A stretch of 64,000 nt of DNA from an uncultured Acidimicrobiia bacterium (GCA_963786955.1 CAWBAT010000005.1:1056001-1120000), one strand, 5' to 3'. Numbered from the stretch's first letter, positions 1 through 15,834 are shown. Translations and numbers: made by a program. The notes: a model not told the origin generated them from the sequence alone.

Positions 1-833
1 CTTTTCGCCCGTGAGCAGAGGAATCCGGGAAGAGCGTCTGAGAGACATCCAGGCTTCTGAAAATGGCACATTCAGAGGGTCTTCGTAAAACAGCGGCTCC
101 AGCGGTTCAACGGCTCTGGCAACTGCTATCGCACTAGGCGTATCTAGTTCGTTGTGGCAGTGCACCGCAATATCAATGTCAGTACCCACTGCTTCCCGGA
201 GGTTCGAGTAGGCACGAAATACGGTGCGAACTTGAGCGGGAGTGAGCGTGGTGGCGTAGCGCGCCGCAGCAATTCCGATGTAAGAATCGAAACTGATCTT
301 ATAGGCGGTGAATCCTTCCGGAGCCGAGCGCACGCGTTGGGCCCATTCACGGCAAGAACCTTTATCTAACATGTCGACATTGACTACCATGTGAATAGAG
401 AGGAATCGACTCGCGGAACGGCCCTCCCAGTAAGACGCAAACCGGACGGTTGAGGATCTTACCCGCGAGGTCCCACAGCGCGATATCAATCCCGCTGATC
501 GTAGGGATATGAGCCATCCAGGCGTGCATGAGGGTCGTCAGGTTGTGGAAATGAACTTCAATCGCCAGGGGATCCTTCCCAATGAGATATTGTTTCATCA
601 CTTCAATTCTGGCTCTCGCCATGGGTCCATTGGTGCCCGCTTCTCCATAACCCGGAGATGCCTGCATCCGTGTCAATGCGAATGAGACAGTTGGAACGAC
701 TTAATTTCATGGCCCAGATATTGGTGATGCGAATCTTTCCCAGTTCGGGCTCCGCCAAAGTTTGAAATCGACTCAACCAGGCTCCCGCTGGAAGCAAAAC
801 TGCAAATCGTAAGAGTTCCCTCCGCGTCATCAT
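1..833 (-). pseudogene. Mandelate racemase/muconate-lactonizing (enolase superfamily) gene with Tat-like leader, broken by two +1 frameshifts; runs off left edge
   Basis: Three successive frames join into one enolase-family protein: MMTRRELLR...IRIDTDAGISG | YGEAG...SGIDIALWDLAGKILNRPV..LLGG | DMLDKGSCREWAQ...DIAVHCHNELD...FYEDPL...IPLLTGEK. Shifts lie near 652 and 385. Confidence 0.75.
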
Positions 834-924
834 TGTAATGCTCCTCCTCGCATGGCGTGCTCGTCCTCATTCTTTGTTCTGGTAATCAGTCTTGTGGGGA
901 ATGTCTGAGGCGCCAGAGATCGCC

Positions 925-1098
925 CTAAGAACCCGATTCTAATGTTGATTTCGCTCTGAAAAAGACGTTGCTCGCGGCCTATCCCAAAGTAGGAAGCGCC
1001 GTAATCGCAGCTAGGGCCAAGAGTATAAGCAATAAGGCATACTCCACAAGGTCTTGGCCTTCCTCGTAATGAATTAGTTTCTCGAGTAATCTTTTCAG
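925..1098 (-). pseudogene. Flp/Fap type IVb pilin remnant
   Basis: KRLLEKLIHYEEGQDLVEYALLLILLALAAITALPTLG*AASNVFFRAKSTL contains the Flp GQ..VEY motif and hydrophobic helix; in-frame TAG at 979-981 and CTG where ATG is expected. Confidence 0.7.
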
Positions 1099-1339
1099 GA
1101 CGTTTCTCTTCCCTCGAAAAACACTTTCGAAGAAAAGAGGTCCATTACAACACCTCTGCAAGCGTGTATGAGGTCATTTCAGAATCAATTGAAGTTCGGA
1201 TAACTCTGCCTAATTGGGCATATTCTACAGAAGAAAAACCTCTCAAAGCATACTCCTCTGTAGCAATTTCTTCGATTGGAAAATTGCATCCGGCCTCAAG
1301 GGTCTGATAGGGATCGAGTGGAATAATGGGGGAGAAATT

Positions 1340-1365
1340 TGGTACGCCCGGAAGGACTCGAACCT
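1340..1365 (-). repeat. att site: 26-bp duplicate of the tRNA-Arg 3' end
   Basis: tggtacgcccggaaggactcgaacct is identical to 13396-13421. Confidence 0.92.
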
Positions 1366-4300
1366 CAAGCGGCACCAATACATTGGATAACTGCCAGTTC
1401 GGTGTCTAACGCGGTTTTTTGTGCGTATTTTTGGAGCGCATGATAAGTCGAAGGGAGGAGCGGCACCCCTTCCCGCAAGTTCCCATCCCGCGCTCGCATT
1501 TCCGTCTCACCGGGGATCAGGATCTCCTCCACGTTTTCAGCCCGCTCTCCCGCCTTCGTTTGCTCAATCATATGGTCGACTCGCGTTGTGAATTCGGCTA
1601 TCGGCATGAACAGCTCCGGATCGATCGCCATGAAAAAGTGACCAATATCCGGTGGCTGCATCTTCTGTCGCGCGTGCTCTCGGCGATGGTCCCAGCCAAA
1701 GCCCGCTCCGGTCAACACGCCTGCCAGCACCTCCATGACAAGAGTGAGACCATACCCTTTGTGACCTCCAATGGGCACACCTAGACCGGCAGCCAGATCT
1801 GCCGGATCCGTCGAGGGATGCCCAAAGCGGTCGAGAATCCAGCCTGGAGGCAGCGGTTTCCCCTCGGCGAGTTGCAGGCCGATCTTTCCCCGCGGTGCAA
1901 CACTCATTGCAATATCAAGCAGAATCGGGTGGTAGCGTCTTGCGGGGATGCCCACGCCAAGCGGATTGTTCCCGAACGTCGGGGTGATACCGCCGGTGGG
2001 CGCCAGGATCGCCGGGCCGTTGGTGGTGCACAAGCCAATCAGCCCCTCCCGTGCGGCTAGCCAAGGGTAATGGCCGGCCGCACCGAGGTGATTGGAGCGA
2101 TGCACACCCACTATCCCCACACCCCTCTCACGTGCCATCCGGATCGCCAGCTTCATTGCCACGACAGCAACCCACTGCCCTGGACCGTTGTCTCCATCGA
2201 CGTGTGCGCTGACTTCCGAATTGCGCTCGATCCGAATATGGGGTCGGGGATTTATTATGCCGGAGGCAATCCGTCGGGCATAACGCGGAATAGCGACCAT
2301 ATTGTGCGTCGGTTGGCCGCGCAGGCTGGCCTCGAGCTGCACTTCGGTAACAATTGCCGCTCCTTCCGGCACCAGGCCAGCTCGCTCCAGTGCCTCGCGG
2401 CCATATGAGCGCAGGCTCTCTGCAGTGACACGGAGTGTGGGTTGGATCTCAACCGTCATCGCTGGGTCTCTCCGTTGGACCCGTTCTATAGCCACTCTAT
2501 GTTCAGCCAGGCCGGCAGAGGATAGAAAAGGATTTGCGACAGCCACTCGTGCCAGCTCTGAAATGGTCTGGTGCTGAAAAACCAGCTTGGGGCTGAGTTG
2601 CAGTCCAGCCTGATTCGCGCGGTTGACCATCTGGATGCTGAGGTTGGAATCCCCACCCATGTCGAAGAAGTTGTCGTCCAGGCTCACGCGATCCAGTCCT
2701 AAGACCTGTGCCCAGACCGACGTCAATACCTCCTCGGCAGGGGTATGTGCTGCGACGTGCCCCGCTTCCAGTTCCAGTAGTGCACCCCCCGGACTGAGGG
2801 AGCCGGCCCCGTCTCGGTTGTCCGCACTCGGGGCGATAGGTTCTTGGGGTAGAGTGTAGAGTCCCGCCCGGTCCACTTTCCCATTGGGCGTTCGCGGCAG
2901 TGCCACCAATTTCACGATCAGCGACGGTACCATGTACTCGGGGAGCTTCTGTTTCAGATACTCACGAAGCTCACGGGCCATGGGTTCCTGTTGGAACGGT
3001 CGCAAGTTTTCAGGAGGGCTCGCCTGAACACCTGAATTCAACACCACATACGCGACGAGGCGTTTCTCCCCCGTCGTGTCCCGTTGCGTCACCACTGCGC
3101 ATTCCCGCACCCCGGGATGCTGCCCCATGACCGCCTCGATCTCCCCCGGTTCGATGCGGTAACCGCGGAGCTTCATCTGATAGTCGACACGACCCGAGAA
3201 CTCGATGCCTCCGTCTGGCAAGTAGCGCGTCACATCCCCGGTCCGGTAAAGACGTTCCCCGGGAATGGGGCTGAACGGATCGGGCACGAATTTTTCCGCA
3301 GTCAGCTCGGGCTGGTTGAGATAGCCCCGCCCTACCCCGGCACCGCCGATATACAGCTCGCCCCAAACGCCGACGGGTACGGGTTGCCCTGAGGGGTCTA
3401 ACACGTACACTCGCGTATTGGGGATCGGACGACCTATCGGGACGACCTTCACGGATTCGCCATCGTGAGAAGGAATTGGATAGACGGTCACGATGCCGGC
3501 CGTCTCTGTCTGCCCGAACATGTTGATCAACCGGGCGCCATGCCCGAACGCTACGCCCCACTCCCTGGGCACATCCGAATATAGCGGTTCGCTAGCGGAC
3601 AGGATCAGCCGCAGTTCGTTCCTCAGCAGATCGGCTCGGGAATTGGGTTCCAAGGTTGCCAGCACCTGATTGCAGTTCCGCCAGTACGACGGAACAATGT
3701 CAATGATTGACACTCCCTGCTGCCGGATAACTTCGAATAGAGCTTGTGGATCCCGGATCTGCTCGCTCTTGGCAACAACGACAGTTGCACCGCATGAGAG
3801 CGGGACTGCGAACTGCCGGACAGAGGAAGAAAACGCAACGGACGCCGTATGGAGATAGCAATCGTCAGCCTTGATCTCTAATGCCGCGTGCATCGCGTGG
3901 ATATAATGGGACAGGTTAGCATGCGTGATCATGACACCCTTTGGCTTCCCCGTTGAACCAGAGGTATAGATCACGTACGCCAGGTTCGCCGCCGTTGCGC
4001 CACTCACTGGGTTCTGTTCACACTCTGTGGCACTGATTTCCGATTCGGATTCCAGGCACACCACCGCCGGGATGTTGGATTCTTGATTTTCGACTCTGAA
4101 TAGCTGCTGACCGGTGGCGCGATTCGAAATCCCCATTGCCGTACCCAAAATCGGAAGCAACCGCTCCTCCGTAACGAGGACAGGTAGCCGGGCATCTTCC
4201 TGCATAAAGGCGAGGCGCTCCGCCGGATACCCCGGGTCTAGGGGCACGTAAGCGCCTCCGGCCTTCATGACACCCAGCAGGGCGGCTATCATCCCCACGG

Positions 4301-4643
4301 ACCGAGTCAGGAAAATCCCCACCGGTGTCTCCGGCCTCACGCCCATTCTCTGCAGGCGCCAGGCCAATTGATTCGCTCGCCTGTTTAGCTCGCTATAAGT
4401 GAGCTGTTCCTCTCCACACCGCACCGCGGGGGCATCAGGGGTCTGCTGCACTTGCTCCTCGAAGAGGTGATGGAAACAGCGGTGGAAATACGGCAGTTCG
4501 GTTTGATTCCACGTCACCAACAGTTGGTGCCGTTCGGCGTCACTCAGCAGCGGCAACTCGGAGAGAGGGGAATTCGGGATTCGCCACAATTCCTTCCAGC
4601 AGAGTTTGGAAATTCCCGGCCATCCGTGCAATTCGGACCCCAT
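1365..4643 (-). CDS. NRPS-like protein, C-terminal part: A-T-Ldh_2 family (malate/L-lactate/ureidoglycolate/sulfolactate dehydrogenase-type) oxidoreductase
   Basis: YVIYTSGSTGKPKG, YRTGD and LPRTPNGKVDR (A domain); FFDMGGDS (PCP); then DGDNGPGQ, SNHLGAAG, GNNPLGVGIP, GGHKGYGL, ILIPGE (Ldh_2, approx. 1365-2440). Same frame as 4971-7886. Confidence 0.88.
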   Translation of the reverse strand: MGSELHGWPGISKLCWKELWRIPNSPLSELPLLSDAERHQLLVTWNQTELPYFHRCFHHLFEEQVQQTPDAPAVRCGEEQLTYSELNRRANQLAWRLQRMGVRPETPVGIFLTRSVGMIAALLGVMKAGGAYVPLDPGYPAERLAFMQEDARLPVLVTEERLLPILGTAMGISNRATGQQLFRVENQESNIPAVVCLESESEISATECEQNPVSGATAANLAYVIYTSGSTGKPKGVMITHANLSHYIHAMHAALEIKADDCYLHTASVAFSSSVRQFAVPLSCGATVVVAKSEQIRDPQALFEVIRQQGVSIIDIVPSYWRNCNQVLATLEPNSRADLLRNELRLILSASEPLYSDVPREWGVAFGHGARLINMFGQTETAGIVTVYPIPSHDGESVKVVPIGRPIPNTRVYVLDPSGQPVPVGVWGELYIGGAGVGRGYLNQPELTAEKFVPDPFSPIPGERLYRTGDVTRYLPDGGIEFSGRVDYQMKLRGYRIEPGEIEAVMGQHPGVRECAVVTQRDTTGEKRLVAYVVLNSGVQASPPENLRPFQQEPMARELREYLKQKLPEYMVPSLIVKLVALPRTPNGKVDRAGLYTLPQEPIAPSADNRDGAGSLSPGGALLELEAGHVAAHTPAEEVLTSVWAQVLGLDRVSLDDNFFDMGGDSNLSIQMVNRANQAGLQLSPKLVFQHQTISELARVAVANPFLSSAGLAEHRVAIERVQRRDPAMTVEIQPTLRVTAESLRSYGREALERAGLVPEGAAIVTEVQLEASLRGQPTHNMVAIPRYARRIASGIINPRPHIRIERNSEVSAHVDGDNGPGQWVAVVAMKLAIRMARERGVGIVGVHRSNHLGAAGHYPWLAAREGLIGLCTTNGPAILAPTGGITPTFGNNPLGVGIPARRYHPILLDIAMSVAPRGKIGLQLAEGKPLPPGWILDRFGHPSTDPADLAAGLGVPIGGHKGYGLTLVMEVLAGVLTGAGFGWDHRREHARQKMQPPDIGHFFMAIDPELFMPIAEFTTRVDHMIEQTKAGERAENVEEILIPGETEMRARDGNLREGVPLLPSTYHALQKYAQKTALDTELAVIQCIGAA

Positions 4644-4974
4644 CGAACAAGTCGGCGTTATACTGCCACGTCGCCATCAACCCCTGCTTGGTTTCCGATA
4701 GATACAGAGTCAAGTCGAACTTGGCTGTCCTACTATTCAACTCCATCGGGCTAACAGTCAGACCCAACAAAGGCTCGATAGAGGCTCCACCTGTTTCAGC
4801 CTCAAACCCGAGCCCGGGCGGTGCTGGGTGGCTATCAGTGTGAATCCTCCTGCCTGGAACGTTCTGAAAGGCAAACATTACTTGGAAAAGTGGATTGTGG
4901 CGATGATCTCGCGCTGGTTGCAGCTCCTCGATCAACATCTCAAATGGCAGGTCTTGATGCGCATATGCGTTCAT
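4540..4974 (-). CDS. Frameshifted C-terminal half of an NRPS condensation domain
   Basis: AYAHQDLPFEMLIEELQPARD..NPLFQVMF..AKFDLTL..YNADLFD is the typical C-domain tail, continuing the C domain of 4971-7886. Confidence 0.85.
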   Translation of the reverse strand: MNAYAHQDLPFEMLIEELQPARDHRHNPLFQVMFAFQNVPGRRIHTDSHPAPPGLGFEAETGGASIEPLLGLTVSPMELNSRTAKFDLTLYLSETKQGLMATWQYNADLFDGVRIARMAGNFQTLLEGIVANPEFPSLRVAAAE

Positions 4975-7886
4975 GGCCGTGCTCGCACCCGCCCCAGAAC
5001 CTCACAGAATGTCGGATTCCCCGACAGATTCGCGTGCATCACCAGCGTGTTGGCAAAGAAACCAATTAAGTCCTCCGTTTCGACGAGAGTCCGATTGGCG
5101 ATCGGTGTGCCCACCGCGAGATCATCTTGTCCCGTGTAGCGGTGCAGCAAGGTCTGGAATGCCGCCAGCAGTGTCATGTAGAGCGTGGCTCTCTCCCGTT
5201 GGCTCAACGCCTTCAACCCTTCGGTCAGCTGGGCGGATATCTCCATTTGGTAACTGGAGCCCCGGAATGACTGGTGGGCAGGACGAGGTCGGTCGGTAGG
5301 CAGATCGAGCACCGGGGGGATCTTTTCGAACTGCCTCTTCCAGTATGCAAGTTGGGTCTCCAGTGCCTTCCCCTGCAACCATTTTCGCTGCCAGACAGCG
5401 AAATCACGATACTGGATCTGCAGTTCCGGCAGCGGTGATGGTCGGCCCGCCGAAAACGCTGCGTAGAGCGTCTCCAATTCCCGATTAAGTACTCTCGTGG
5501 ACCAGCCATCGGAAACGATGTGGTGCATGGTCAGGAGCAGCATGTGCTCTTCTACATCCAACCGTAGGAGTGTGACACGAAAGAGCGGTCCGTGGAGCAG
5601 ATGGAATGGACGGACGATCTCTTCGGAGGCCAGACGCACGGCCTCAGCCTGGCGGTCGGATACGGGAAGCCTCGTCAGATTCACCACCGGCAGCCGCAGG
5701 GGTTGCACCGGGGAAATGACCTGGATAGGGTGCCCGCCGACAGTGCGGAAGGTGGTGCGGAGAGCTTCGTGGCGGCGAAGGATCTCGTTGATGCTCTGCT
5801 CCAGCACCTCCTCGCGGAGCCTCCCCGTGAGACGCAGTGCGATATGCATATTATAGGCGGGGTTCCCAGGCTCAATCTGGTCGAGCAACCACAGTCGCTG
5901 CTGTGCAAATGACAGCACGCAATGCTCAGTCGCACTCCCCCGCGGAATACTCGGGCTTTCTGTGCGTAGATAAGTCGTCTTTCCATCAGCCACCCGCATC
6001 AGTAGGTAACGGGTAACAAGCTCTGCCAGCTCCGCGACGGTTGGCCTTTCAAACAGGGTTTGCATGGGCAGCTCGACCTGGAAGTCACGGTGCAACCGCG
6101 AAAATACCTGGGCTGCCTTTAGCGAGTCGCCACCTGACTGGAAGAAATTGTCATGGATGCCGAGCTGATCAATACCCAACACGCTAGCCCAGATCTCTGA
6201 CAGTCGCTCTTCTATGGACGTGCGGGGTGCAGTGAAATCGGCCAGCTTCTTGCCTGGCGCCACCAGATCCAGTTTCTCTGCCAATCCCATGCGCTGCAGT
6301 TTGCCAGTTGGCCCCTTTGGGATTTCATCCATGATCACAATTTGCTGCGGCACCTTGAAATGGGCGAGGCGCGCCGAGGCAAACTGACGGATCTCCTTGA
6401 TCAGGGGTTCCGTTGCTCGGAGATTTAGGTGTTGGGATGAGTTCACCTGAACACCTGACCTGAGAACGATCGCGACCGCGACATCCTCACCAAGGGTGGC
6501 ATGAGGGACCGGGAACGTAACAGCTTGTGCGATCACCGGGTGATCCAGCAGTACTTCATCCACCTCTCGCGGCGAGATTTTCTCCCCTCCGCGGTTGATG
6601 ATCTCCTTGAGACGCCCGGTGATGAAAAGGTAACCCTCCGCATCCAGGTAACCCCTATCGCCCGTACGGAACCACCCCCGGACAAAAGCGCTGCTATTGG
6701 CTTCGGGGTTGTTTTCATAAGCCAGCATGACGTTTGTGCCACGGATTACGACCTCGCCGTTTTCCCCTGGCGGCAACAGATTGCCGATCTCATCCATAAT
6801 CGCGACGTCCGGCCCCGCGGCCAGACCCACCGAACCTGGCTTCCGCCTGCTCGGCGGCAGCTGGCTGCTTGCAATCTGTGGAGCAGCCTCGGTCATCCCG
6901 TACGCCTCGATGAAGGGGATATGAAACACGCGTTCCATCTCCGTCATCAACTTCCTCGGCATCGGCGCGGAGGCCGAGCGGATGAATCGCAGCGAAGAGC
7001 GCGCGCGGATGCCCGGATGGTGAATAGCGTTCTCCAGGATCTCCTGGTGAATCGTGGGTGCCGCCGTGTACCACGTAGGGCGAAACGCCTCCATCCATTC
7101 AAAGAACCGCGGAGCGGAAAAGCCATCCGTGCAAATGACGCTCGCACCCGCCGCAATCGAAGCAAAAATCGTGCTCAGGCCATGAATGTGAAATAACGGC
7201 ATCACATTCAGACAACGATCGCTGTCGACTAACTCGACTGCAGCGCGAATATTGTTAGCGGAGGCGCAGATGTTACGGTGTGTCAGGGGTACCAGCTTCG
7301 GTAGTGCAGCCGATCCGGAAGTGTGAAGCGCCAACGCGACATCCTCCGGCTGTGCGAACCCCGCCTTCATGTTTTCAAACCTTAGGATTTCCGAGTGTTC
7401 CGCCCTGGGCACTTGAACACCCTGCTTCAGCGTGAAGAGACCTGCCTCTTCTTCTTCCAATGGTGTCAGTTCAATGATCGGGATGCCACGAGCTCGGGCA
7501 ACAGCGACTGCTGGCGATGAGCTGCCCGATTGCACCAGCAGCGCCCGGGCGCGGAGATCTGCAAGATGGAAATCGAATTCGCCGGCACGGTAGGCAGGAT
7601 TGAGGGGTGCGCAAGTGGCGCCGGCAGCGATGGTGATAAACGCTACAGCCATCTCGGGACCTTCGGGAAGCACCAATGCCACACGGTCATTCCTCCCGAC
7701 GCCGAGCGAGTTGAGCGCCTCCACGACCGTCACCAGCTGGCGGCACAAACGGCCGTAAGTAAGAGGCCTGCGTCCCGGGGCGAGAATCGCTACGGCATCG
7801 GGGTTCCGTTCGGCCTGCTCTTGGACCAGTTGACGCAGACAATAGTGCCGGGTGTGATCCGTGAATTGGATAGGATCAGCATTCAT
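4971..7886 (-). CDS. NRPS-like protein, N-terminal part: acyl/oxalate-CoA-ligase-like A domain, T, C
   Basis: LHTSGS, VPLTHRN, PLFHIHGL, RSASA, EAYGMTEAA, RKPGSVG and INRGGEKISPRE resemble AAE3/Pcs60 oxalate-CoA ligases; FFQSGGDSL PCP; intact HHIVSDGWS C domain. Confidence 0.88.
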   Translation of the reverse strand: MNADPIQFTDHTRHYCLRQLVQEQAERNPDAVAILAPGRRPLTYGRLCRQLVTVVEALNSLGVGRNDRVALVLPEGPEMAVAFITIAAGATCAPLNPAYRAGEFDFHLADLRARALLVQSGSSSPAVAVARARGIPIIELTPLEEEEAGLFTLKQGVQVPRAEHSEILRFENMKAGFAQPEDVALALHTSGSAALPKLVPLTHRNICASANNIRAAVELVDSDRCLNVMPLFHIHGLSTIFASIAAGASVICTDGFSAPRFFEWMEAFRPTWYTAAPTIHQEILENAIHHPGIRARSSLRFIRSASAPMPRKLMTEMERVFHIPFIEAYGMTEAAPQIASSQLPPSRRKPGSVGLAAGPDVAIMDEIGNLLPPGENGEVVIRGTNVMLAYENNPEANSSAFVRGWFRTGDRGYLDAEGYLFITGRLKEIINRGGEKISPREVDEVLLDHPVIAQAVTFPVPHATLGEDVAVAIVLRSGVQVNSSQHLNLRATEPLIKEIRQFASARLAHFKVPQQIVIMDEIPKGPTGKLQRMGLAEKLDLVAPGKKLADFTAPRTSIEERLSEIWASVLGIDQLGIHDNFFQSGGDSLKAAQVFSRLHRDFQVELPMQTLFERPTVAELAELVTRYLLMRVADGKTTYLRTESPSIPRGSATEHCVLSFAQQRLWLLDQIEPGNPAYNMHIALRLTGRLREEVLEQSINEILRRHEALRTTFRTVGGHPIQVISPVQPLRLPVVNLTRLPVSDRQAEAVRLASEEIVRPFHLLHGPLFRVTLLRLDVEEHMLLLTMHHIVSDGWSTRVLNRELETLYAAFSAGRPSPLPELQIQYRDFAVWQRKWLQGKALETQLAYWKRQFEKIPPVLDLPTDRPRPAHQSFRGSSYQMEISAQLTEGLKALSQRERATLYMTLLAAFQTLLHRYTGQDDLAVGTPIANRTLVETEDLIGFFANTLVMHANLSGNPTFCEVLGRVRARP

Positions 7887-7926
7887 GGTTCGTTCTCTCG
7901 TTTGTACTGCTGAAGCGTTTCACAGA

Positions 7927-10900
7927 TTACTCCTTCGATTTCCGTTCCAGCGGTCGGGGTAAAGAGACGCAGATGTCTACCAGGGCGGACCGGCCGCGGT
8001 GGACTTCTTGAAGCGCTTCCCGGAGTACCGACTGGAGTTTCGCCGGATCGTCCACGGTCCTGGCCCACAATCCCATCGCTTCCGCCACTTTGGAATACAG
8101 AGGCGGCTTCGGCAGATCGCACGCCGGGTAGTTGCCTGTCTTCCTTGCGTAGCCCTCGGGCGCTATGGCCAGAATTGCTTCGGTGGTGGCAGCATAAGCC
8201 TGATTATTGAAGATCACCGTCAAGAAAGGACTGCGGTGTTGCTCGGCCGCCCAGTACGTAACAATGGGAGAGCCGAATACCCAGGAGCCATCTCCTACCG
8301 TGCAAATAATCGTTTTAGAGGGGGAGGCAAGTTTGGCACCCAAGGCGGCTCCAAGGCCCCAACCAAGGCCGGACCCGAGGCTCTGGTAGTAGGTTCCGGG
8401 TTTATCTGAATTCAGATAATGCCAAAGGACCGGATTGTTACTGACAGCCTCGCTGACGATCACCGTGTCGTCATCCACAATTTCGTTCAAGCAGTAGGCA
8501 GCCCATTCTGGTGCGATCGGCTGCCGCACCGCCAAATCGAGAGCTCTCTGCCGCCACCCTGCCTTTTGCACCTCGTGCTCCGCGGTCAGAACATGGCGTC
8601 TTGTCTCAATCCGTGGCCGATCTGTGGGGCTCAGCCTGCGCTCGACCTCCTCCGCCAAGGCTGCCATGGCTTGCGAAGAATCGGCCTGAATGGAAAGGTC
8701 TACCGGGAATCCCCAGATCGGGATATCCCGTTTGAGGGGGTCAATGTCCACGTGGATAATTCGGCATTGAGAGGGTGGTTGTCCTTGCGCAGGGACCCAT
8801 GGAACATCGTGGTCGACAATCAGAACGCAATCAGCATGCTGCAAGTAGTGAGCGGCCGAAAATCCGAGATGAAGCGGGTGTCCCGTAGGAAAATTCATTC
8901 GGTGACGCAACTCCACTACTGGGGCTGCAAGCTTCTCGGCAAGTCTAACCAGAGAGGCCACAGCCTTGGGATTGCGGCCCGCATAGGCCACAAGAATTAA
9001 AGGTCTTTCCGCCTCGATCAGCCACTGCGCTGCCTGAGCAAGGCTCTCAGGGTCAGCCGCCAGTGTTGAAATCACTGGCGTGCGCCGGGGTCCCACAATC
9101 GGAGTCTCCAACTTCTCCAAGAGCACTTCCTTCGGGAGGGTCAAATATACCGGGCCCGCCGGCTCCGTGCCGGCTAACTGGAATGCACGCTGCATCGCCA
9201 CGTGAAGGTTTTCCCGGCGGGTCAGCTCGTAATGCCACTTGACGTAATTCTGCACAATGCCTGCCTGGTTAAACTGCTCTTGTATCCAGTCGATAGAGCG
9301 ATTGCGCCCACCCTCGACGTTGCCATCGACGGTGTAGGGGGATCTCCCCGCACAGATAACCACTCCGGCGCGACCACGCTGTGCGTTGTGTAGATTCGCA
9401 CCGATGTTCTGGGTGCCCACGTCAACGTGAACCAGGACTACCTGAGGCCTTCCGGTAATCATGAAGTAGCCGTGCGCAGCTGCCATAGCCACAGACTCAT
9501 GAAGACAGAGGATCAGCTCAGGTGCCCGGCGTCCCTGGGCTTTAAACTTGGCTATGGATTCCTGGATCGGCGCAATGTCGCTACCCGGGTTGATAAAGAT
9601 GTAATCGACGGCGTAGGCGTTGAGCAGCTCAATATAACCGTCGGAGACGTTGTCAATCAGCAGACTCTGTGGTTCTGCCTTGTGCAACCGTTGAGACTCA
9701 CGAGGCACGACATGTGGGAACACCTTCGCCGGTGCCTGAATTTGCGCGCGTTCGAGGCAAGCCTTCAACTGTTGGGCCAGGACCTGAACGTTTGGTTTCA
9801 CCAAGATTAAGCCGGAGTCATCGCCGGGCACATTGTAAATCTCCAGGCCTCCGGCAGCCAGCCGACTCCAGTGCAGCCTGCGATCCTCTTCGGGAGCAAC
9901 GTTACGGCCCTCGGCCTGAAAAAGGACAACGCGCCCTGGGTAGGTGTGCGGCTTGTAATGGTGAACCGCAGCTAGATTAGCCTGCCTAACAACCCCCCCA
10001 TAGAACACGTTGCGGTCACCCCTGAAAAGGTCGCGCTGGGCGACCATCTGCTTGAGTGTCTTAAGCCGCTCAATCAGGTATTCGAATCGCTGCCGGCCAC
10101 GGAGCCTCGCAAGCGTATCGCCGTAAAGCCGTATCCGGCTGACCGTGAGATTGAGGGCCGCCAGCACGCGCAGAGCGGGCCGGAACCATAGCTTAGAGGT
10201 CACCACCGGCGGCCTCGGCTCAAGGAGAGCTAAGAGGCCGACCTTTTGTCCTGCTGAGTGCAGCTGTTGTGCCATCTCATACGCGACAACAGCGCCCATG
10301 CACCCACCGGCGAGATAGTAGGGACCCTCGGGTTGCAGCTCACGGATTTCCTCCAGATAGGTCGCCGCGATCTCCTCAATGCTTGTCAGCGGCTTCTCCG
10401 TTCCACTGAGTCCGCGCGATTGCAGGCCATAGAAGGGCTGCTCCGGACCCAGAAGCCGCGCGAGGTCGTTAAAGCCGAGCACGTTACCCCCGACGCCCGG
10501 TACAGCAAATAGGGGTGGTCGGCTTCCCGCCGGCTGAATCGAAACCAGGGAGCGCCATGACTGTGACTCACTGCCCTTGCCAATGACTGCGGCGAGCCCT
10601 TCGATGGTGGGCGCCCGGAACAGCGTCGCGAGCGGTAGCCTGATCCGTAAACATTCTTCCAGCCGTGCGAACATCACGGCGGCGAGCAGTGAGTGGCCCC
10701 CGAGGTCGAAGAAGTTTTCTCGAGTCCCAACAGGATTAACCATGAGAATCTCTTCCCAAATCTTAACCAGTTGTCGCTCGACCTCATTTTGGGGTTGGGT
10801 GAATGTGGATGTCCGATCCCTGCTCCTGTCCGGCGGAGGAAGCGCTCGGCGGTCTATCTTACCGTTGGGCGTTAAAGGCAGTGCTTCCAAGAATACAAAC

Positions 10901-12426
10901 GCAGAGGGAATCATATAATCAGGCAACTTCTGCTGGAGAAAAGCGCGCAGTTCGCCGCCTGTCGGAGCCAGTTCTTGTGACGGAACAATATAGGCAATTA
11001 ATTGTTTATCATTTGGTACGTTGTCCAGCACTACAACCACTGCTTCTCGAACAATTGGATGTTGACGGAGTACGGCCTCAATCTCATTCAGCTCAACACG
11101 GAAGCCCCGGATCTTCACCTGATGATCAGCGCGGCCCAGAAACTCGAAACTGCCATCTGACAAGAATCGCCCACGGTCGCCGGTTCGATAAATCCGCTGC
11201 CCGGGAACTTCCGGGTCAGGCTTGAAGACTGGGGCCGTTTCTTCCGGGCGGTGCCAATACCCTTCGGCAATATAGCGGCTCTTGACGACTAATTCACCTA
11301 TCTCCCCCCTGGCGACAGGCTGACCTGATTCGTCAACGAGCTCGAGGCATTTGTCTGCTACCGGTCGACCAGCCGACAGGGCTCCAAGGTCTTTCACCAT
11401 ATTCGCATCGATGCGAGCTACGCATAGTAGGCCGGTCTCGGTCGTGGAAAAGCGATGCATCAGCACGCAGGAACTTCCGAAATGCAGCTTCCATTTTTCT
11501 ATATCGGTACGTAGGACCACATCTCCAGCCAGGGCCACCGACCTTACCGAGGGAAACAAATTCTCCCCCTCCAGAGTGGAAAGGAACCTCCGAAACAGCA
11601 GCACGGGGGGATGCAGCAGGGTGATTTGCTCCTCTTCGAGCCATTCCCTGAAGGCCGTCAGACCTTCTGATGCAAAATCAAACACACAGAGAGTGGCACC
11701 GTTAAGTAGGGCTCCAAACATGTCCGCTTCCGACGCCGAAAAACTGCAGTGGGTCAATAGAGACTGCCGATCAGCCGGAGTGATGGCATCATGTTGTGCG
11801 AAGAGCCATACACGGTGCAGAACCGCCCGATGGCTCTTCACTACCCCCTTCGGTTGGCCGGTCGTCCCAGAGGTATAGAAGATTGTTGACGGGTCATGCG
11901 GCCTTATCTCAATCTGCGGGCTATCCTCGGGAAACCCAGCATCGATCTCATCAAGCATCAAAAGGGAAGTGGGCCCGGCCATTAACTCGCGGGCGCGGGA
12001 TTCAAACGCGGCAGTCGTCAGAATCAAATCCGGGGCCACGTCTCGCACGATTTCCGCCTGCCGCTTGGCTGGCATTCTAGGGTGAATGGCTAAATATGTC
12101 TTTCCAGCCTTCAGCACCGCAAGCGTGGCAATCACCATTTCCGGCGAATGATCTAATAAATAGGGAACACATCCGACACCGGGATGTGTGCGCTCCTTGA
12201 TGGCGTGCGCAATCCGATTTACTTGTCTGTTTAGATCCTGGTAGGTCCACTGCCGGCCAGCGCCGGTGAGAGCGATGTGATTTGGAAAGCGGCAGACCAC
12301 TTGTTCGAAACGAGCCGGTACGGTCTGCTCAATTTCCGCCCTTGAAAAAGGGAGACTCGGGGGTGGAGCGGCTTCACCCGTGTTAGTCGTCGTCTCCACA
12401 AGCCTCAACATGAGCAGATTCCCCAA
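7927..12426 (-). CDS. NRPS-like A-T-TE fused to a full ThDP-dependent enzyme (acetolactate synthase/benzoylformate decarboxylase-like)
   Basis: YTSGTTGQPKG and YRTGD (A); FFDLGGHSL (PCP); TE with GGCMG; then NPGSD, LHESVAMAAAHGY, GPVYLTLP and GDGS..NN ThDP motifs (approx. 7927-9660). Confidence 0.92.
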   Translation of the reverse strand: MGNLLMLRLVETTTNTGEAAPPPSLPFSRAEIEQTVPARFEQVVCRFPNHIALTGAGRQWTYQDLNRQVNRIAHAIKERTHPGVGCVPYLLDHSPEMVIATLAVLKAGKTYLAIHPRMPAKRQAEIVRDVAPDLILTTAAFESRARELMAGPTSLLMLDEIDAGFPEDSPQIEIRPHDPSTIFYTSGTTGQPKGVVKSHRAVLHRVWLFAQHDAITPADRQSLLTHCSFSASEADMFGALLNGATLCVFDFASEGLTAFREWLEEEQITLLHPPVLLFRRFLSTLEGENLFPSVRSVALAGDVVLRTDIEKWKLHFGSSCVLMHRFSTTETGLLCVARIDANMVKDLGALSAGRPVADKCLELVDESGQPVARGEIGELVVKSRYIAEGYWHRPEETAPVFKPDPEVPGQRIYRTGDRGRFLSDGSFEFLGRADHQVKIRGFRVELNEIEAVLRQHPIVREAVVVVLDNVPNDKQLIAYIVPSQELAPTGGELRAFLQQKLPDYMIPSAFVFLEALPLTPNGKIDRRALPPPDRSRDRTSTFTQPQNEVERQLVKIWEEILMVNPVGTRENFFDLGGHSLLAAVMFARLEECLRIRLPLATLFRAPTIEGLAAVIGKGSESQSWRSLVSIQPAGSRPPLFAVPGVGGNVLGFNDLARLLGPEQPFYGLQSRGLSGTEKPLTSIEEIAATYLEEIRELQPEGPYYLAGGCMGAVVAYEMAQQLHSAGQKVGLLALLEPRPPVVTSKLWFRPALRVLAALNLTVSRIRLYGDTLARLRGRQRFEYLIERLKTLKQMVAQRDLFRGDRNVFYGGVVRQANLAAVHHYKPHTYPGRVVLFQAEGRNVAPEEDRRLHWSRLAAGGLEIYNVPGDDSGLILVKPNVQVLAQQLKACLERAQIQAPAKVFPHVVPRESQRLHKAEPQSLLIDNVSDGYIELLNAYAVDYIFINPGSDIAPIQESIAKFKAQGRRAPELILCLHESVAMAAAHGYFMITGRPQVVLVHVDVGTQNIGANLHNAQRGRAGVVICAGRSPYTVDGNVEGGRNRSIDWIQEQFNQAGIVQNYVKWHYELTRRENLHVAMQRAFQLAGTEPAGPVYLTLPKEVLLEKLETPIVGPRRTPVISTLAADPESLAQAAQWLIEAERPLILVAYAGRNPKAVASLVRLAEKLAAPVVELRHRMNFPTGHPLHLGFSAAHYLQHADCVLIVDHDVPWVPAQGQPPSQCRIIHVDIDPLKRDIPIWGFPVDLSIQADSSQAMAALAEEVERRLSPTDRPRIETRRHVLTAEHEVQKAGWRQRALDLAVRQPIAPEWAAYCLNEIVDDDTVIVSEAVSNNPVLWHYLNSDKPGTYYQSLGSGLGWGLGAALGAKLASPSKTIICTVGDGSWVFGSPIVTYWAAEQHRSPFLTVIFNNQAYAATTEAILAIAPEGYARKTGNYPACDLPKPPLYSKVAEAMGLWARTVDDPAKLQSVLREALQEVHRGRSALVDICVSLPRPLERKSKE

Positions 12427-12962
12427 GAACTAACGATGCAACCATCCCAGCTGCAATTTATTACGGCGAAGAATGACATCCATCTCCAATCAATCCGCTA
12501 CCTCTGCCCTTGCTCCTTCTCGGCATACTGCATTTGGCGTGCCTAATCCGGCAATCAGGGCTCCTTCAGGCTTCCCTGCGTGGCGCGGTTCAGCCCATGT
12601 GGGGGAATGCAAAAGGCAGGCAACCCCCCTGTTTTCTTGCAAATCTCCAACCAAATCAAAATGATACTTGCTAATATAGTCGGCGGCGGGTGCAACTACC
12701 AATTTCTCCTATGAATAAAAGCGTAGCTTCCTTATCCCATATTTTTTCCGCTCTTGAGAAAGTGGAAAACCTTTTCCATTAATGTCCATCCAAATGTGGT
12801 AGAGATTATAAGCAACATGGTTTGGACTATTTGCCACCAATTATTTGCCGATTTTTTGGGGCGCAAACTCGTGGCTGCACGACGGCAACCTGGAGTTAAC
12901 TAAGCGGAATCAGTCCAACCACTGAATACCGACATAAGTCGGCTTTTTCTTATTGTAAGTAG

Positions 12963-13330
12963 TTGTCTAATTCAATCGGCCCTATATGCATAATCAAGGT
13001 AAACGAACTGCTGCGGTGTTGTTCCGCGACTCTGTTCGGCTCGACTAAGGAAACCGTTACCTATGTGATGGGCAGCCACGTCTTGCCGAGGTGTGTCGAG
13101 ACACGCCTCTACAATCCGACGCGATTCAATCTCCATTCCCATTTGAACTAGCTCGCGAAGAAATATTCAGAATCGGCCGTTCAGAAGGCACGAACCTGAT
13201 TGAACGGCGCATTCGAGGAAGCTATTGATCAGGACTTCTCGTTTAAGAATCCTGCCAGGAAACTGGCAGTGTGGGTCACCCGCAAGAGCTGCAAACGTTA
13301 CCTTAGTGCCAAGGAAATCCACAAACCTGA
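12963..13330 (+). pseudogene. Tyrosine recombinase/integrase remnant (core-binding region only)
   Basis: One frame reads STKETVTYVMGSHVLP...TRFNLHSHLN*LAKKYSESAVQKART*LNGAFEEAIDQDFSFKNPARKL..RKSCKRYLSAKEI, an integrase 'NP' core-binding signature with two in-frame stops; catalytic domain missing; abuts the tRNA. Confidence 0.7.
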
Positions 13331-13395
13331 TCGCCCGGAGACTGATTGTTTGTGCTCTAAGACCTGGGAAGTTATTCGCTTAACGATTGAAAGGA

Positions 13396-13472
<77 letters not shown>

Positions 13473-13830
13473 GCGCGGCAAGAATTTCTCGTAAACATAG
13501 ATGAGCGGCCATAATGCCGCATGGGAAAAAGGCCCCCGTCCATGGGCTTCTTAAGCTTTGTAAGGTATCATAAGAAATCCGACCCGAAAAGCGGAAACCC
13601 CACAATATGCTATAGTGATAGGGTGTTACTCGAACTTAATGATGCATGATGTTTGATCTGTCTGAAAGTTAGTCTTAAGGAGCTGCACTGAATTAGGGTC
13701 TCCCCGGTCTGTCCGCTGAAGGACCGCCCTCTCCCCAAAGAGAGGGCAGAAATCATTATCTTTTTGCATGTTCGAATGGGAAAAGCCGCTGAGGGGATTT
13801 TGCCGTGATTTACTCGCGGGTTCTTTCGTT

Positions 13831-14151
13831 ATGCCTCGAATTCGAATTCTTCCGGACCAAGTTGAAGTTCAAGTCAGGCCAGGAATTACTCTGCTGAAAA
13901 GCGCTGAGCAAGCCGGTGTCGAGATCCTGCATTCTTGCGGAGGCCTCGGTGCCTGCACTTCCTGTCGTGTCCTCATCATAGAAGGGAGAGATCGATTGAC
14001 TCCGATCGGACAGGCTGAAGAAGAACAACTCGTCGAGTCGGGACTGCTCCATTCTCACCGCCTGGCCTGCCAAGCCGCCATTCTTGGGGATGTTGTCATC
14101 GAACGCCCGAAATGGCGATCCTCATTAGATTCTCCAATTACAGGAGAGTAG
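13831..14151 (+). CDS. 2Fe-2S ferredoxin
   Basis: CGGLGACTSC...RLACQ motif; start taken at MPRIRI. Confidence 0.9.
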   Translation: MPRIRILPDQVEVQVRPGITLLKSAEQAGVEILHSCGGLGACTSCRVLIIEGRDRLTPIGQAEEEQLVESGLLHSHRLACQAAILGDVVIERPKWRSSLDSPITGE

Positions 14152-14154
14152 CCC

Positions 14155-15834
14155 ATGAGTGTCGACCGAGAGATCCTCGAAGTCGATGTTTTGTTCATTG
14201 GAGCAGGACCCGCCAGTTTGAGCGGAGCACTGCACTTGCAAAATCTGATCGATGGCCACAACCAGAATTTGCCGAGCGGTCAGGAAAAGCTTCGTCCGAG
14301 CATTGCGGTGATTGAAAAGGGACGTGAAATTGGCGCCCATTGCTTATCCGGGGCAATCCTTGATCCGCGGGCTTTGGAGGAACTGCTCCCTAACTACCGA
14401 GACCTGGGAGTCCCACTGGCGACACCTGTCACCCAGGATGACATCTATTATCTCACCCCATCCCGAAAAATTCGGTTTCCAATCATTCCTCCGCCTCTGG
14501 ACAACCAGGGAAATTACCTCATTTCCCTAAACCGGTTCGTTCAATGGCTAGGAGAAAAGGTAGCCGCAAAGGGGGTTGACCTCTTCCCAGGCTTTGCGGG
14601 TACCGATTTGATTTTTGATGGGGACCGGATTGTCGGCATTCGCACAGGTGACAGAGGGGTCGATAAGCAAGGGAAGCCAAAAGCTTCTTTCGAACCCGGC
14701 GTTGATATTATGGCCAAGGTGGTCGTTTTCGGGGAGGGAGTGCGCGGGTCTTTGACCAAGCAGTTAGTAGAGCGATTGAAACTAGATCAGGGAAAAGCTC
14801 CCCAGGTGTATGCCATCGGCGTCAAAGAGGTCTGGGAATTGCCCGTAGAATCCTCTCAAAAAGGGCATGTCATCCACACCCTCGGTTATCCCCTGAAGCA
14901 CAAGAACTACGGGGGAGGCTTCATCTATAACATGGGATCTCTTCTATCTGTCGGTCTGGTCATCGGTTTAGACTACGAAGATCCTGCATTGGACCCCCAC
15001 CTATGCTTCCAGCAATTCAAGACTCATCCCTTGATCACCGGAATGTTGAAAGGTGCAAAATTAGCGCATTACGGAGCCAAAGCCATTCCCGAAGGAGGTT
15101 ACTATTCCATCCCGAAAAGCTCAATGAACGGCGGACTTATCATCGGCGACAGCGCAGGACTACTGAACTCGCAGCGTCTCAAAGGAATCCACCTAGCTAT
15201 GAAATCGGGGCTGTTGGCGGCCGAGACTCTGCTGGAGGCCCTGTTGAAAAAGGATTTCAGTGAGGCGACGCTGGCAGGCTATGAACGCCGTGTCAAAGCA
15301 AGTTGGGTGGAGAAGGAATTGTTTCCGGTTCGAAATTTTCGTCAGGGGTTTGAGCATGGTTTGTTCTCCGGTGTCGTCAATGCTGGACTACAGAGCCTCA
15401 CGGGAGGCCGGGGGTGGAAAGATCCGCTTTTATCAAGAGCAGGGCATGAGCGCATGAGAAAGCTTATGGACGACGACCTTGCCCGCGCGACGGTTTTACC
15501 TCCAGGGGCCAATGGGGAGTTGGCTGTCAGCAAGGCCACAGATATCTATTTTTCCAGCATCAAGCATGAAGAGGATCAACCAACGCACTTATTGATTTCC
15601 GACTATGACATTTGTAATCAGCGCTGTAGGGGGGAATATGACAATCCTTGTGTACGCTTCTGCCCGGCCCATGTGTATGAGATGGTTGAGCGAGAGGATG
15701 GAAAGGGAAAACGGCTGCAGTTGAACCCCAGCAACTGCATTCACTGCAAGACTTGTGACATTATGGACCCTTACCAGATTATTACCTGGGTGCCTCCGGA
15801 AGGAGGCAGCGGTCCCAATTTTGTAAACCTCTAG
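14155..15834 (+). CDS. Electron transfer flavoprotein-ubiquinone oxidoreductase
   Basis: GAGPAS FAD motif, SGAILDPRAL, KGIHLAMKSG, C-terminal CPA..CIHCKTC 4Fe-4S and WVPPEGGSGP. Confidence 0.93.
   Translation: MSVDREILEVDVLFIGAGPASLSGALHLQNLIDGHNQNLPSGQEKLRPSIAVIEKGREIGAHCLSGAILDPRALEELLPNYRDLGVPLATPVTQDDIYYLTPSRKIRFPIIPPPLDNQGNYLISLNRFVQWLGEKVAAKGVDLFPGFAGTDLIFDGDRIVGIRTGDRGVDKQGKPKASFEPGVDIMAKVVVFGEGVRGSLTKQLVERLKLDQGKAPQVYAIGVKEVWELPVESSQKGHVIHTLGYPLKHKNYGGGFIYNMGSLLSVGLVIGLDYEDPALDPHLCFQQFKTHPLITGMLKGAKLAHYGAKAIPEGGYYSIPKSSMNGGLIIGDSAGLLNSQRLKGIHLAMKSGLLAAETLLEALLKKDFSEATLAGYERRVKASWVEKELFPVRNFRQGFEHGLFSGVVNAGLQSLTGGRGWKDPLLSRAGHERMRKLMDDDLARATVLPPGANGELAVSKATDIYFSSIKHEEDQPTHLLISDYDICNQRCRGEYDNPCVRFCPAHVYEMVEREDGKGKRLQLNPSNCIHCKTCDIMDPYQIITWVPPEGGSGPNFVNL

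Follow-up and report, generated by a model that had tools for sequence, protein, structure and literature searches.

Introduction

Depsipeptide-forming nonribosomal peptide synthetases (NRPSs) such as those for cereulide (CesA/B) and valinomycin (Vlm1/2), together with StsA, are among the described systems closest to the one reported here. Their modules have the order adenylation, ketoreductase, carrier (A-KR-T), and the ketoreductase, a member of the short-chain dehydrogenase/reductase (SDR) family inserted in the A domain, reduces a 2-oxo acid in cis to the 2-hydroxy nucleophile of an ester (general background and the accessible part of PMC11253843). According to the same part of that source, Asp235 (GrsA numbering) binds the alpha-amino group in A domains for alpha-amino acids, A domains for 2-hydroxy or 2-oxo acids replace it, and the 2-oxo-acid domain StsA also replaces the proline of the A5 motif (NxYGPTE). 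Here we analysed 64,000 nucleotides (nt) of an uncultured Acidimicrobiia bacterium (GCA_963786955.1, CAWBAT010000005.1:1056001-1120000; hereafter the window), in which two minus-strand genes between positions 1365 and 12426 form an NRPS-like cassette: gene 1 encodes A-T-TE-ThDP (TE, thioesterase; ThDP, thiamine-diphosphate enzyme) and gene 2 encodes A-T-C-A-T-Ldh_2 (C, condensation). Like the depsipeptide systems, the cassette has NRPS-type A domains that lack both Asp235 and the A5 proline and, as we propose from its sequence, a cis-acting reductase that would supply a 2-hydroxy nucleophile for an ester. Unlike them, it carries an Ldh_2 fold behind a T domain instead of an SDR ketoreductase within an A domain, and its fixed pocket arginines suggest acidic rather than branched-chain substrates.

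Other described enzymes resemble single parts of the cassette. NRPS-like A-T-TE enzymes of the terrequinone, atromentin and ralfuranone type act on 2-oxo acids; they lack a C domain and their A domain lacks Asp235, as in the front part of gene 1, and the same unit occurs in related cassettes without ThDP, two of which (L020, L035) have a TE with the PGDH histidine. Unlike those enzymes, the unit is always paired here with an A-T-C-A-T-Ldh_2 protein, and the window adds a ThDP domain and a His-less TE. Transketolase/E1-type ThDP enzymes give C2 units to NRPS lines in trans (Peng et al. 2012, cited in PMC5725682), and a transcript of the dinoflagellate Karenia brevis for an NRPS/polyketide synthase has an uncharacterised N-terminal thiamine pyrophosphate (TPP) domain (PMC5725682, accessible part). 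Both couple a ThDP enzyme to thiotemplate assembly; the enzyme in the window, by contrast, is of the benzoylformate decarboxylase/acetolactate synthase (BFDC/ALS) type, lies C-terminal to A-T(-TE) and is bacterial. In a full-text literature search, with subscription journals and supplements outside its range and absence from print hence unproven, we found neither ThDP nor Ldh_2 domains described for a bacterial NRPS, nor any oxalate-loading module, and the Karenia brevis domain was the nearest mention; the initial annotation of this DNA, made from the sequence by a model, had likewise known of no characterised NRPS with either terminal fusion.

The cassette is a conserved, horizontally spread and so far undescribed type of thiotemplate system. 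We tentatively propose, at somewhat less than an even chance, that it joins small carboxylic acids rather than amino acids: an oxalyl-type starter would be esterified to 2-hydroxy acids, Ldh_2 would take the ketoreductase role, and the ThDP domain would process or release a third unit. If this is true, the cassette represents a widespread, unstudied class of assembly line in which NRPS hardware builds small non-peptide acids from an oxalate-type starter and 2-oxo or 2-hydroxy acids, having recruited Ldh_2 and BFDC/ALS-type ThDP folds that are undescribed as NRPS domains in the literature searched. Its notable features would be the oxalate-type starter, Ldh_2 as a non-SDR reductase, and a pair of ThDP and His-less Cys domains in place of a TE, with possible release or C-C coupling. 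Because the cassette is compact (two genes), conserved at specificity positions and mobile, its make-up points to a single defined product that has some ecological function, such as, perhaps, metal binding.

Results

Architecture of the two-gene cassette

Gene 1 (7927..12426) is a single open frame of 1499 codons from a TTG; its copy in the protein collection (P0002) has 1494 amino acids (aa), a length that would fit a start at ATG 12411. Pfam places AMP-binding at residues 40-391, AMP-binding_C at 448-523, PP-binding at 552-615, Thioesterase at 638-775 and TPP_enzyme_N/M/C at 926-1485. Gene 2 (1365-7886) lies 40 bp downstream of it in three open reading frame (ORF) pieces, also on the minus strand, as are all domains described below. 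Piece 1 (4971..7886, 971 aa) contains AMP-binding, PP-binding and positions 3-318 of the Condensation profile, piece 2 (4540..4974, 144 aa) profile positions 322-439, and piece 3 (1365..4643, 1092 aa) AMP-binding, PP-binding and a full-length Ldh_2. ORF and Pfam analysis thus reproduced the domain order and the spacing that had been annotated initially.

The hallmarks of an NRPS, namely adenylation, carrier (Ser) and condensation (HHxxxDG) domains in modular order, were all observed in the cassette. Throughout, family conservation was counted over 100 listed homologues of gene 2 (1955-2415 aa) and 50 family members of gene 1. The carrier serine was kept in every one of them: in T1 (6015..6209, GGDS) and T2 (2547..2729, GGDS) in 100/100 and in T3 of gene 1 (10582..10773, GGHS) in 50/50. 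The C domain (4570..5927; PF00668, profile 3-318 plus 322-439) is split by a frameshift and has an intact HHIVSDG motif, whose His-His-Asp is kept in 100/100 homologues; it is the sole C domain of this genome. Pfam detected no KR or other SDR family in the four cassette ORFs; Ldh_2 instead follows T2. ThDP and Ldh_2 enzymes act as dimers, and by this analogy the synthetase probably dimerises through its ThDP and Ldh_2 ends.

Substrate pockets of the adenylation domains

The first A domain of gene 2, A1 (6300..7823), had been annotated simply as A; it is of the acyl-CoA-ligase rather than the amino-acid type. It aligned over its full length with oxalyl-CoA synthetases (OCSs; AtAAE3 5ie0-5ie3, LsOCS 6qjz, yeast Pcs60 8aff) at 338-383 bits (6qjz 383, 5ie0 371, 8aff 338); other ANL enzymes reached roughly half of this at best, the next kind being FadD13 at 188 bits. 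Against the NCBIfam FadD7 family it reached 385 bits, under the cut-off of 650. The accessible part of PMC8905533 gives the oxalate pocket of AtAAE3 as Val215-His216, Cys288-Ser289, Ala313-Met314, His319 and Lys500. A1 keeps His216, Ser289, Met314 and Lys500 and departs from the synthetases at Val215 (Ile), Cys288 (Ala), Ala313 (Gly) and His319 (Pro), the residue at each of these positions being shared by 97-100 of the 100 homologues. Ser289 and His319 are said in that part of PMC8905533 to be conserved in OCSs only; the former is kept in 100/100 homologues and the latter is Pro in 97/100. Judged by its pocket, A1 is therefore OCS-like rather than an OCS, one of the two signature residues being altered. 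Oxalate is our best guess at its substrate, and a closely related small acid is possible. A1 further differs from the described synthetases in being fused to a carrier and a C domain, with phosphopantetheine rather than CoA as acceptor.

The second A domain of gene 2, A2 (2877..4463), and that of gene 1, A3 (10858..12309), are of the NRPS type (Pfam/TIGR01733; A3 339 bits, cut-off 317). In HMMER alignments with LgrA, FD faces FS in both, that is, Asp235 is replaced by Ser, which is found in 99/100 members of the A2 family and in 42 of the 50 members of the A3 family, the other 8 having Ala. The A5 motif reads NMFGQTE in A2 (Gln in 93/100, Pro in 1/100) and HRFSTTE in A3, where Thr, Ile, Ser or Ala occupies the proline position (Pro in 0/49). 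The ten pocket positions, as in the accessible part of PMC11253843 and placed by motif with the help of the GrsA sequence, read S-S-R-D-L-A-M-G-I-K in A2 and S-A-A-L-A-A-R-L-L-K in A3; they are kept in 90-100 of 100 homologues of A2 and in 42-50 of 50 of A3, except position 239 of A3 (Ala 21, Ser 16, Thr 9 of 50). A2 and A3 thus lack the Asp235 that marks alpha-amino-acid A domains and show both replacements of the depsipeptide type, with Ser in place of the Gly, Ala, Val or Ile quoted in that part of the source; the SDR ketoreductase that accompanies the depsipeptide type in the same module is absent. The initial suggestion that the line handles keto or hydroxy acids gains indirect support from these replacements.

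Each of the two pockets contains a fixed arginine, Arg239 of A2 (99/100) and Arg322 of A3 (48/50), which suggests an acidic side chain in the substrate. We take the combination Arg/Lys239-Asp278-Leu299 to resemble Glu-type codes and a basic residue at 322 to resemble Asp-type codes; on this likeness, 2-oxoglutarate-like and oxaloacetate-like acids would be a lead for A2 and A3, respectively.

An amide product would use the same pockets differently. A2 would load an Asp- or Glu-like amino-dicarboxylic acid via its side-chain carboxyl, the C domain would make an N-oxalyl (or similar N-acyl) amino acid, and Ldh_2 and the ThDP domain would act on oxalyl-type or 2-oxo groups, like AllD and oxalyl-CoA decarboxylase. 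Asp278 and Arg239 of A2, fixed in 99/100 each, could hold an amine and a deeper carboxylate; C domains usually make amides; and the Ldh_2 family includes ureidoglycolate dehydrogenase, which the window's domain matched at 156-202 bits. In related cassettes, TauD-type oxygenases (L017, L021) and a cupin/JmjC protein (L015) lie within the cassette, and such oxygenases often hydroxylate tethered amino acids. We nevertheless regard this outcome as unlikely, since neither Asp235 nor the A5 proline is kept, a pattern shared with A domains for substrates other than amino acids, and even beta-amino-acid A domains still use an Asp235 equivalent (both points from the accessible part of PMC11253843); moreover, the models for AllD and oxalyl-CoA decarboxylase scored far below the best matches.

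The terminal Ldh_2, ThDP and thioesterase-fold domains

The C-terminal domain of gene 2 (1431..2429) is a type-2 malate/L-lactate dehydrogenase that covers the whole Ldh_2 profile (PF02615, 371.4 bits, 1-333/333). Its closest relatives are type-2 malate/lactate dehydrogenases of archaea and Thermus, together with L-sulfolactate dehydrogenase (nearest PDB entries 1v9n at 228 bits, 1vbi, and 2x06, L-sulfolactate dehydrogenase), and it falls under the equivalog cut-offs of named enzymes such as L-sulfolactate and ureidoglycolate dehydrogenases (NF040650, 241.3 of 500; NF011599, 201.6 of 356; TIGR03175, 194.8 of 496.2). The Arg and two His residues checked are kept in 100/100 homologues. Free-standing relatives with 62-64% identity were found at L028-L031, L068-L073 and L078. 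Around those of L028, L029 and L031 we saw transporters, xylose-isomerase-like TIM barrels and unrelated genes, which gave no substrate clue. The TIM-barrel genes lie beside or near the Ldh_2 gene in two of these three loci (L028:7615-8481, with one MFS gene between, and L029:1684-2598); this family includes hydroxypyruvate isomerase and may hint at C2/C3 acid substrates for the Ldh_2 relatives.

The ThDP domain at the C-terminus of gene 1 (7966..9651; PYR-TH3-PP, Pfam TPP_enzyme_N/M/C) scored 659.6 bits against NF006203 (PRK08327; cut-off 456), whose annotation is only "thiamine pyrophosphate-requiring protein", and 216.6 bits against the BFDC model NF005485, under the cut-off of 493. Its nearest PDB structures are BFDCs at about 145 bits. 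With them it shares the three-domain ThDP fold, the cofactor Glu (HE) and the GDG...N motif, all kept in 50/50 family members; it differs in its distance from them and in being fused behind A-T or A-T-TE. Identity within the fused clade is 47-82%, as against at most 44% to free-standing forms: in a search of 1.84 billion representatives, the fused clade comprised about 5 representatives, and the next relatives were mostly free-standing proteins of about 550-620 aa with at most 44% identity. The description of an assembly line ending in a ThDP enzyme proved overstated, because ThDP is optional and occurs in 7/21 genome loci and 5/24 metagenome loci. The TE domain is optional in the family as well, A-T-ThDP proteins also occurring.

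Between T3 and ThDP lies a thioesterase-fold domain (9757..10521, PF00975) with a Cys nucleophile (GGCMG), Glu for the catalytic Asp and Asp for the catalytic His (VPGDDSG). Of the original TE assignment, the fold and the Pfam match stand; the canonical type I triad of nucleophile, acid and His does not. Cys-thioesterases as such are familiar from ObiF and SulM. The best solved match, the TE of AB3403 (Acinetobacter baumannii C-A-T-TE, 4zxh), also has a Cys nucleophile (GWCFG) and, unlike the window's domain and its relatives with Glu and Asp/Asn at these positions, keeps Asp and His (PGDHSS, where the window has PGDD). In 25/28 TE-bearing family members (the window and 27 others), GxCMG is combined with Asp or Asn at the position of the catalytic His. 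The three exceptions keep His, and two of them (P0003, P0009) have Ser as nucleophile and an A domain only 41% identical to the window's. In cassettes without ThDP, the TE nucleophile is Ser in L020, L024 and L035 and Cys in L023 and L025; the PGDH histidine is seen in L020 and L035, and the stretch read for L024 ends before that region. The TE of L013, the other genome locus with the window's arrangement, is of the His-less form. Apart from the separate P0003/P0009 type, none of the ThDP-bearing loci examined had a conventional TE, so that, judging from these motifs, a conventional releasing TE and a ThDP domain appear to be largely mutually exclusive.

The A, T and TE domains of gene 1 are closest to those of P0019 and P0022 (78-79, 70-76 and 70-72% identity, respectively), and its ThDP domain is closest to those of P0003-P0005 (80-82%), among which a TE is lacking in P0004 and P0005 and is of the Ser-His kind in P0003. 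This mosaic suggests domain-level recombination. Separately, about 20 proteins of some 830-875 aa (P0062-P0081, one from Nannocystis pusilla) join another alpha/beta-hydrolase (Abhydrolase_1/6, Hydrolase_4) to a ThDP domain that shares 32-38% identity with that of the window; the pairing of hydrolase and ThDP enzyme seems to have arisen more than once.

The fused enzymes might serve only to supply substrates. Ldh_2 and ThDP would then never touch carrier-bound intermediates and would make a free 2-hydroxy acid and a decarboxylated or ligated acid beside the A domains, with release by hydrolysis or spontaneous cyclisation. The free-standing Ldh_2 relatives with 62-64% identity are consistent with this, as are the optional presence of ThDP, its score above the cut-off of NF006203, a family of free-standing proteins of about 570 aa, and its numerous free-standing relatives with up to 44% identity. 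A D-hydroxyisovalerate dehydrogenase reportedly feeds enniatin synthetase in trans. We consider pure supply rather unlikely: it leaves unexplained the missing conventional TE in ThDP-bearing cassettes, the separateness of the fused ThDP clade (47-82% within, at most 44% outside) and the conserved His-less Cys domain between T3 and ThDP.

A more specific role for these two domains would be a ketosynthase-like condensation and release unit. The gene 2 chain would be parked on the Cys, and the ThDP domain would decarboxylate the 2-oxo acid on A3-T3 to a carbanion or enamine that attacks the thioester, giving a 1,2-diketone or acyloin. We hold this to be quite improbable. If true, such Cys/ThDP coupling would form a C-C bond between carrier-delivered units without a C or ketosynthase domain and would be a new mode of extension or off-loading.

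A proposed reaction sequence

For the joining of small carboxylic acids that we tentatively favour, we infer the following substrates, order of steps and roles of Ldh_2, ThDP and the Cys domain. A1 would charge T1 with oxalate or a small acid much like it, and A2 would charge T2 with a 2-oxo or 2-hydroxy acid whose side chain is acidic. Ldh_2 would reduce the 2-oxo acid, free or tethered, with NAD(P)H to provide the 2-hydroxy group, which is the job of the SDR ketoreductase in cereulide- and valinomycin-type synthetases. The single C domain would then join the two gene 2 units by an ester. A3-T3 of gene 1 would bring a third non-amino acid, at whose 2-oxo function the ThDP domain would decarboxylate or carboligate; ThDP and the His-less Cys domain would stand in for the conventional hydrolytic TE of cassettes without ThDP. 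We would expect a small, very acidic oxalyl depsi-ester or acyloin as product, and a metal-binding role for it is a guess. The ester, lactone or acyloin product and the new release chemistry of the initial annotation are likewise putative.

Several observations weigh against this proposal. Because the His319 equivalent of A1 is Pro, the starter may be other than oxalate. The fixed Asp278 of A2 could bind an amine, and the pocket codes of A2 and A3 have no match to any verifiable code. The close free-standing relatives of Ldh_2 would point to action on a free rather than a tethered acid, and Ldh_2 enzymes normally need a free 1-carboxylate. ThDP is missing from most cassettes and is thus not essential to the core chemistry. 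In a genome of the same genus (G002), an in-frame C domain follows the ThDP domain, a better match to an initiation than to a release module. In four of six Mesorhizobium loci (L016, L018, L019, L022), tblastn detected no T3 or TE beside A3; among these, the ORF of L016 is the only one checked by Pfam and consists of A alone, while of the remaining two, L034 gave a weak T-like match and L020 has A-T-TE.

Recurrence of the cassette in bacteria

The ThDP-region search, over proteins of 824-2624 aa, gave 89 matches, of which P0003 to P0061 are A-T-ThDP proteins (about 1160-1270 aa), A-T-TE-ThDP proteins (about 1390-1565 aa) or pieces of such proteins. Their sources are JGI, ENA, NCBI and Logan assemblies, and some bear the label Vicinamibacterales, Gemmatimonadales, Bryobacteraceae or Eremiobacterota. 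No such ThDP domain was found in proteins above 2624 aa, which is weak evidence. The Ldh_2 search, over proteins longer than 1911 aa, returned Condensation, AMP-binding, PP-binding and Ldh_2 in 100/100 of the matches listed (1955-2415 aa), including isolates of several Mesorhizobium species. The cassette thus turns up in soil bacteria from many phyla, and was seen in Acidobacteriota, Gemmatimonadota, Mesorhizobium, Verrucomicrobiota, Planctomycetota, Chloroflexota and others; an E. coli genome collection gave no match to 13.5 kb of the region.

Of 26 loci in the genome collection with a relative of the Ldh_2 domain, 5 are free-standing and 21 are the end of an A-T-C-A-T-Ldh_2 gene. Next to gene 2, 18 of these 21 have a gene-1-type (A3-type) A domain, and 7 also have ThDP; the three without a companion are all on contigs cut at one side. 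A metagenome scan added 41 loci, 24 of them with A2/T2 fused to Ldh_2. Among the 24, ThDP adjoins in 5, an A3-type domain lies downstream in 7, other NRPS modules lie downstream in L080, and a TE-like stretch directly follows Ldh_2 in L057; the remaining 10 have no companion and are all cut inside gene 2 on its upstream side.

That the domain fusions are assembly or gene-calling artefacts is a possibility we regard as practically negligible. Nothing was found in its favour, the sole weakness being at least three local frameshifts in this genome. Gene 1 is an uninterrupted frame of 1499 codons, and the fusions recur across dozens of assemblies made independently from different sources, including Mesorhizobium isolate genomes, which refutes the idea. 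The initial annotation had named artefacts and one-off stop-codon losses as what would undo its reading; the recurrence in many phyla and independent assemblies speaks against both.

The arrangements vary around this core. The ThDP-type gene and gene 2 are neighbours in the window, in L010 and in 7/21 genome loci: as A-T-TE-ThDP followed by gene 2 in the window and L013; as A-T-ThDP followed by gene 2 in L014, L015 and L010 (from G012); and as gene 2 followed by a convergent A-T-ThDP gene in L017 and L021, with a TauD-type oxygenase between, and also in L033. Gene 2 followed by A-T-TE without ThDP was found in Mesorhizobium, Phycisphaerales, Tepidisphaerales and Obscuribacteraceae, with a stand-alone A in Mesorhizobium L016. 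Since cultured Mesorhizobium strains carry the ThDP-less version, comparison experiments are practical. In G002, A-T-ThDP continues in the same frame into an additional C-A-T module that precedes gene 2. Nowhere but at this locus (L011, G002:C2:692000-711000; 10173-11519, minus strand) was ThDP seen inside an assembly line, and since the locus is rich in frameshifts, the ThDP-C fusion is a candidate.

The TauD-family dioxygenase genes between gene 2 and the convergent A-T-ThDP gene lie in gammaproteobacterial loci (L017:11101-12093 and L021:11098-12117), and the cupin/JmjC-type protein follows gene 2 in an acidobacterial one (L015:11151-12053); these are possible tailoring oxygenases of the cassette. 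Both scanned Mesorhizobium loci (L016, L020) have a gene for an Sfp/EntD-type phosphopantetheinyl transferase (PPTase) directly before the cassette, and in L025 such a gene comes after it. ExbB/TonB-type genes come after the cassette of Mesorhizobium sp. STM 4661 (L020:14454-17271), which weakly hints at a connection with TonB-dependent uptake, for example of a metallophore.

Frameshifts and the state of the window's copy

Three intact homologues compared with gene 2 by tblastn gave unbroken coverage over 7841-4983 (frame -2), 4983-4567 (frame -1) and 4577-1386 (frame -2). Because they align without loss across the three frames, gene 2 carries exactly two opposite, compensating 1-base shifts, 416 nt apart and both inside the C domain, and its read-through product is about 2170 aa, the length first proposed for the repaired gene. 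At the first shift (4981..4985, minus strand), located by tblastn and by comparison with homologues, one base is missing at GCA(A)CGG. At the second (4566..4577, minus strand), located by the tblastn frame switch and by three-frame reading against homologues, there is an extra base in a C run (CCCC), TTCCCCTCTCTCC. Among public reads, only two metagenome runs, and no listed RNA run, contain the region, with 6-7% of the sampled words in scattered contig pieces of 150-450 nt; in these runs, no piece lay over 4292-4665 and almost none over 4666-5039. We discarded programmed frameshifting, there being two opposite shifts and no known signal, and an alternative genetic code, the frames being otherwise open under table 11.

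The cassette in this genome may also be a dead relic, its frameshifts real and the island around it decaying along with its integrase. We rate this as possible but on balance doubtful. Gene 2 is twice out of frame here, both times inside the C domain, which also counts against our proposal; the integrase is reduced to a 345-bp fragment; and an adjoining dehydratase-like gene at 1-676 is split too. Some 40 other window ORFs gave mostly ordinary Pfam matches, and no other split gene was noticed among them, so indels are not general in the window. Conversely, both shifts in gene 2 are single-base length changes at short runs (AA, CCCC) that cancel each other with no residue lost, which have the appearance of consensus errors, and the 11 kb contain no stop codon or deletion otherwise. 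The shifts resemble homopolymer-length errors, yet a third broken gene and a decayed integrase are found in their vicinity. That third gene, galactonate-dehydratase-like (enolase superfamily; minus strand) and beside the island, consists of two overlapping frames (1..489 and 362..676); its split is the third frameshift in the first 5 kb, and none was noticed among the ORFs scanned in the remaining 59 kb.

A probable tRNA-Arg island with two genes as cargo

The cassette occupies a probable island of 12,030 bp (1366-13395) with a GC content of 0.572, compared with 0.518 elsewhere in the window. It is flanked by a perfect 26-nt direct repeat (100% identity): the distal copy (1340..1365, no strand assigned), found by repeat search, forms one border, its final base overlapping the stop codon of gene 2, and the second copy (13396-13421) is the 3' end of a tRNA-Arg(TCT) gene at 13396-13472 (minus strand; ARAGORN, Rfam tRNA 69 bits), the probable integration site. 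Next to the tRNA lies an internal fragment of a tyrosine integrase gene, a pseudogene remnant of 345 bp (13041..13386, plus strand), with 84% identity to L042:8673-8956, which is inside an intact Phage_integrase ORF of 445 aa at the same tRNA, in a different island of G002. Of the usual marks of an island, we thus observed the tRNA 3'-end repeat at both borders and a deviating GC content, and the integrase only as this fragment; the tRNA repeat and the integrase remnant had escaped the initial annotation. Judged by these features, the two synthetase genes are the sole cargo of what is probably an island no longer able to move by itself.

That the two genes are the only cargo, as first annotated, agrees with the repeat borders and with the ORF list, in which no ORF of at least 80 aa lies between gene 1 and the tRNA; a 70-aa ORF at 12490-12702 and an ORF at 13200-13514 had no family match. 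An MbtH identity for the 70-aa ORF was rejected, Pfam giving no match. The island likewise holds no PPTase, transporter or regulator, as had been noted, and the PPTase matches in this genome lie only outside the cassette region. The ~40 other ORFs of the window are mostly housekeeping genes, for example ATP synthase, ClpB and ParAB.

Upstream of gene 1, a non-coding stretch of about 200 nt (12631..12832, minus strand) is conserved by blastn upstream of related clusters (76% in G002, 68% in G012, both from the same family as the window's genome) and is probably a promoter or leader. A promoter-like site lies at 12702-12673, and such sites are no commoner here than in shuffled sequence; promoter and terminator scans did no better than on shuffled sequence. 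Rfam over 1-14200 detected only the tRNA, with no family at 12631..12832 and no riboswitch upstream of gene 1. Elsewhere in the same genome, an open frame of 920 aa (G000:C3:173927-176596) has 38% identity to residues 23-898 of gene 1, covering A-T-TE, and carries no ThDP domain.

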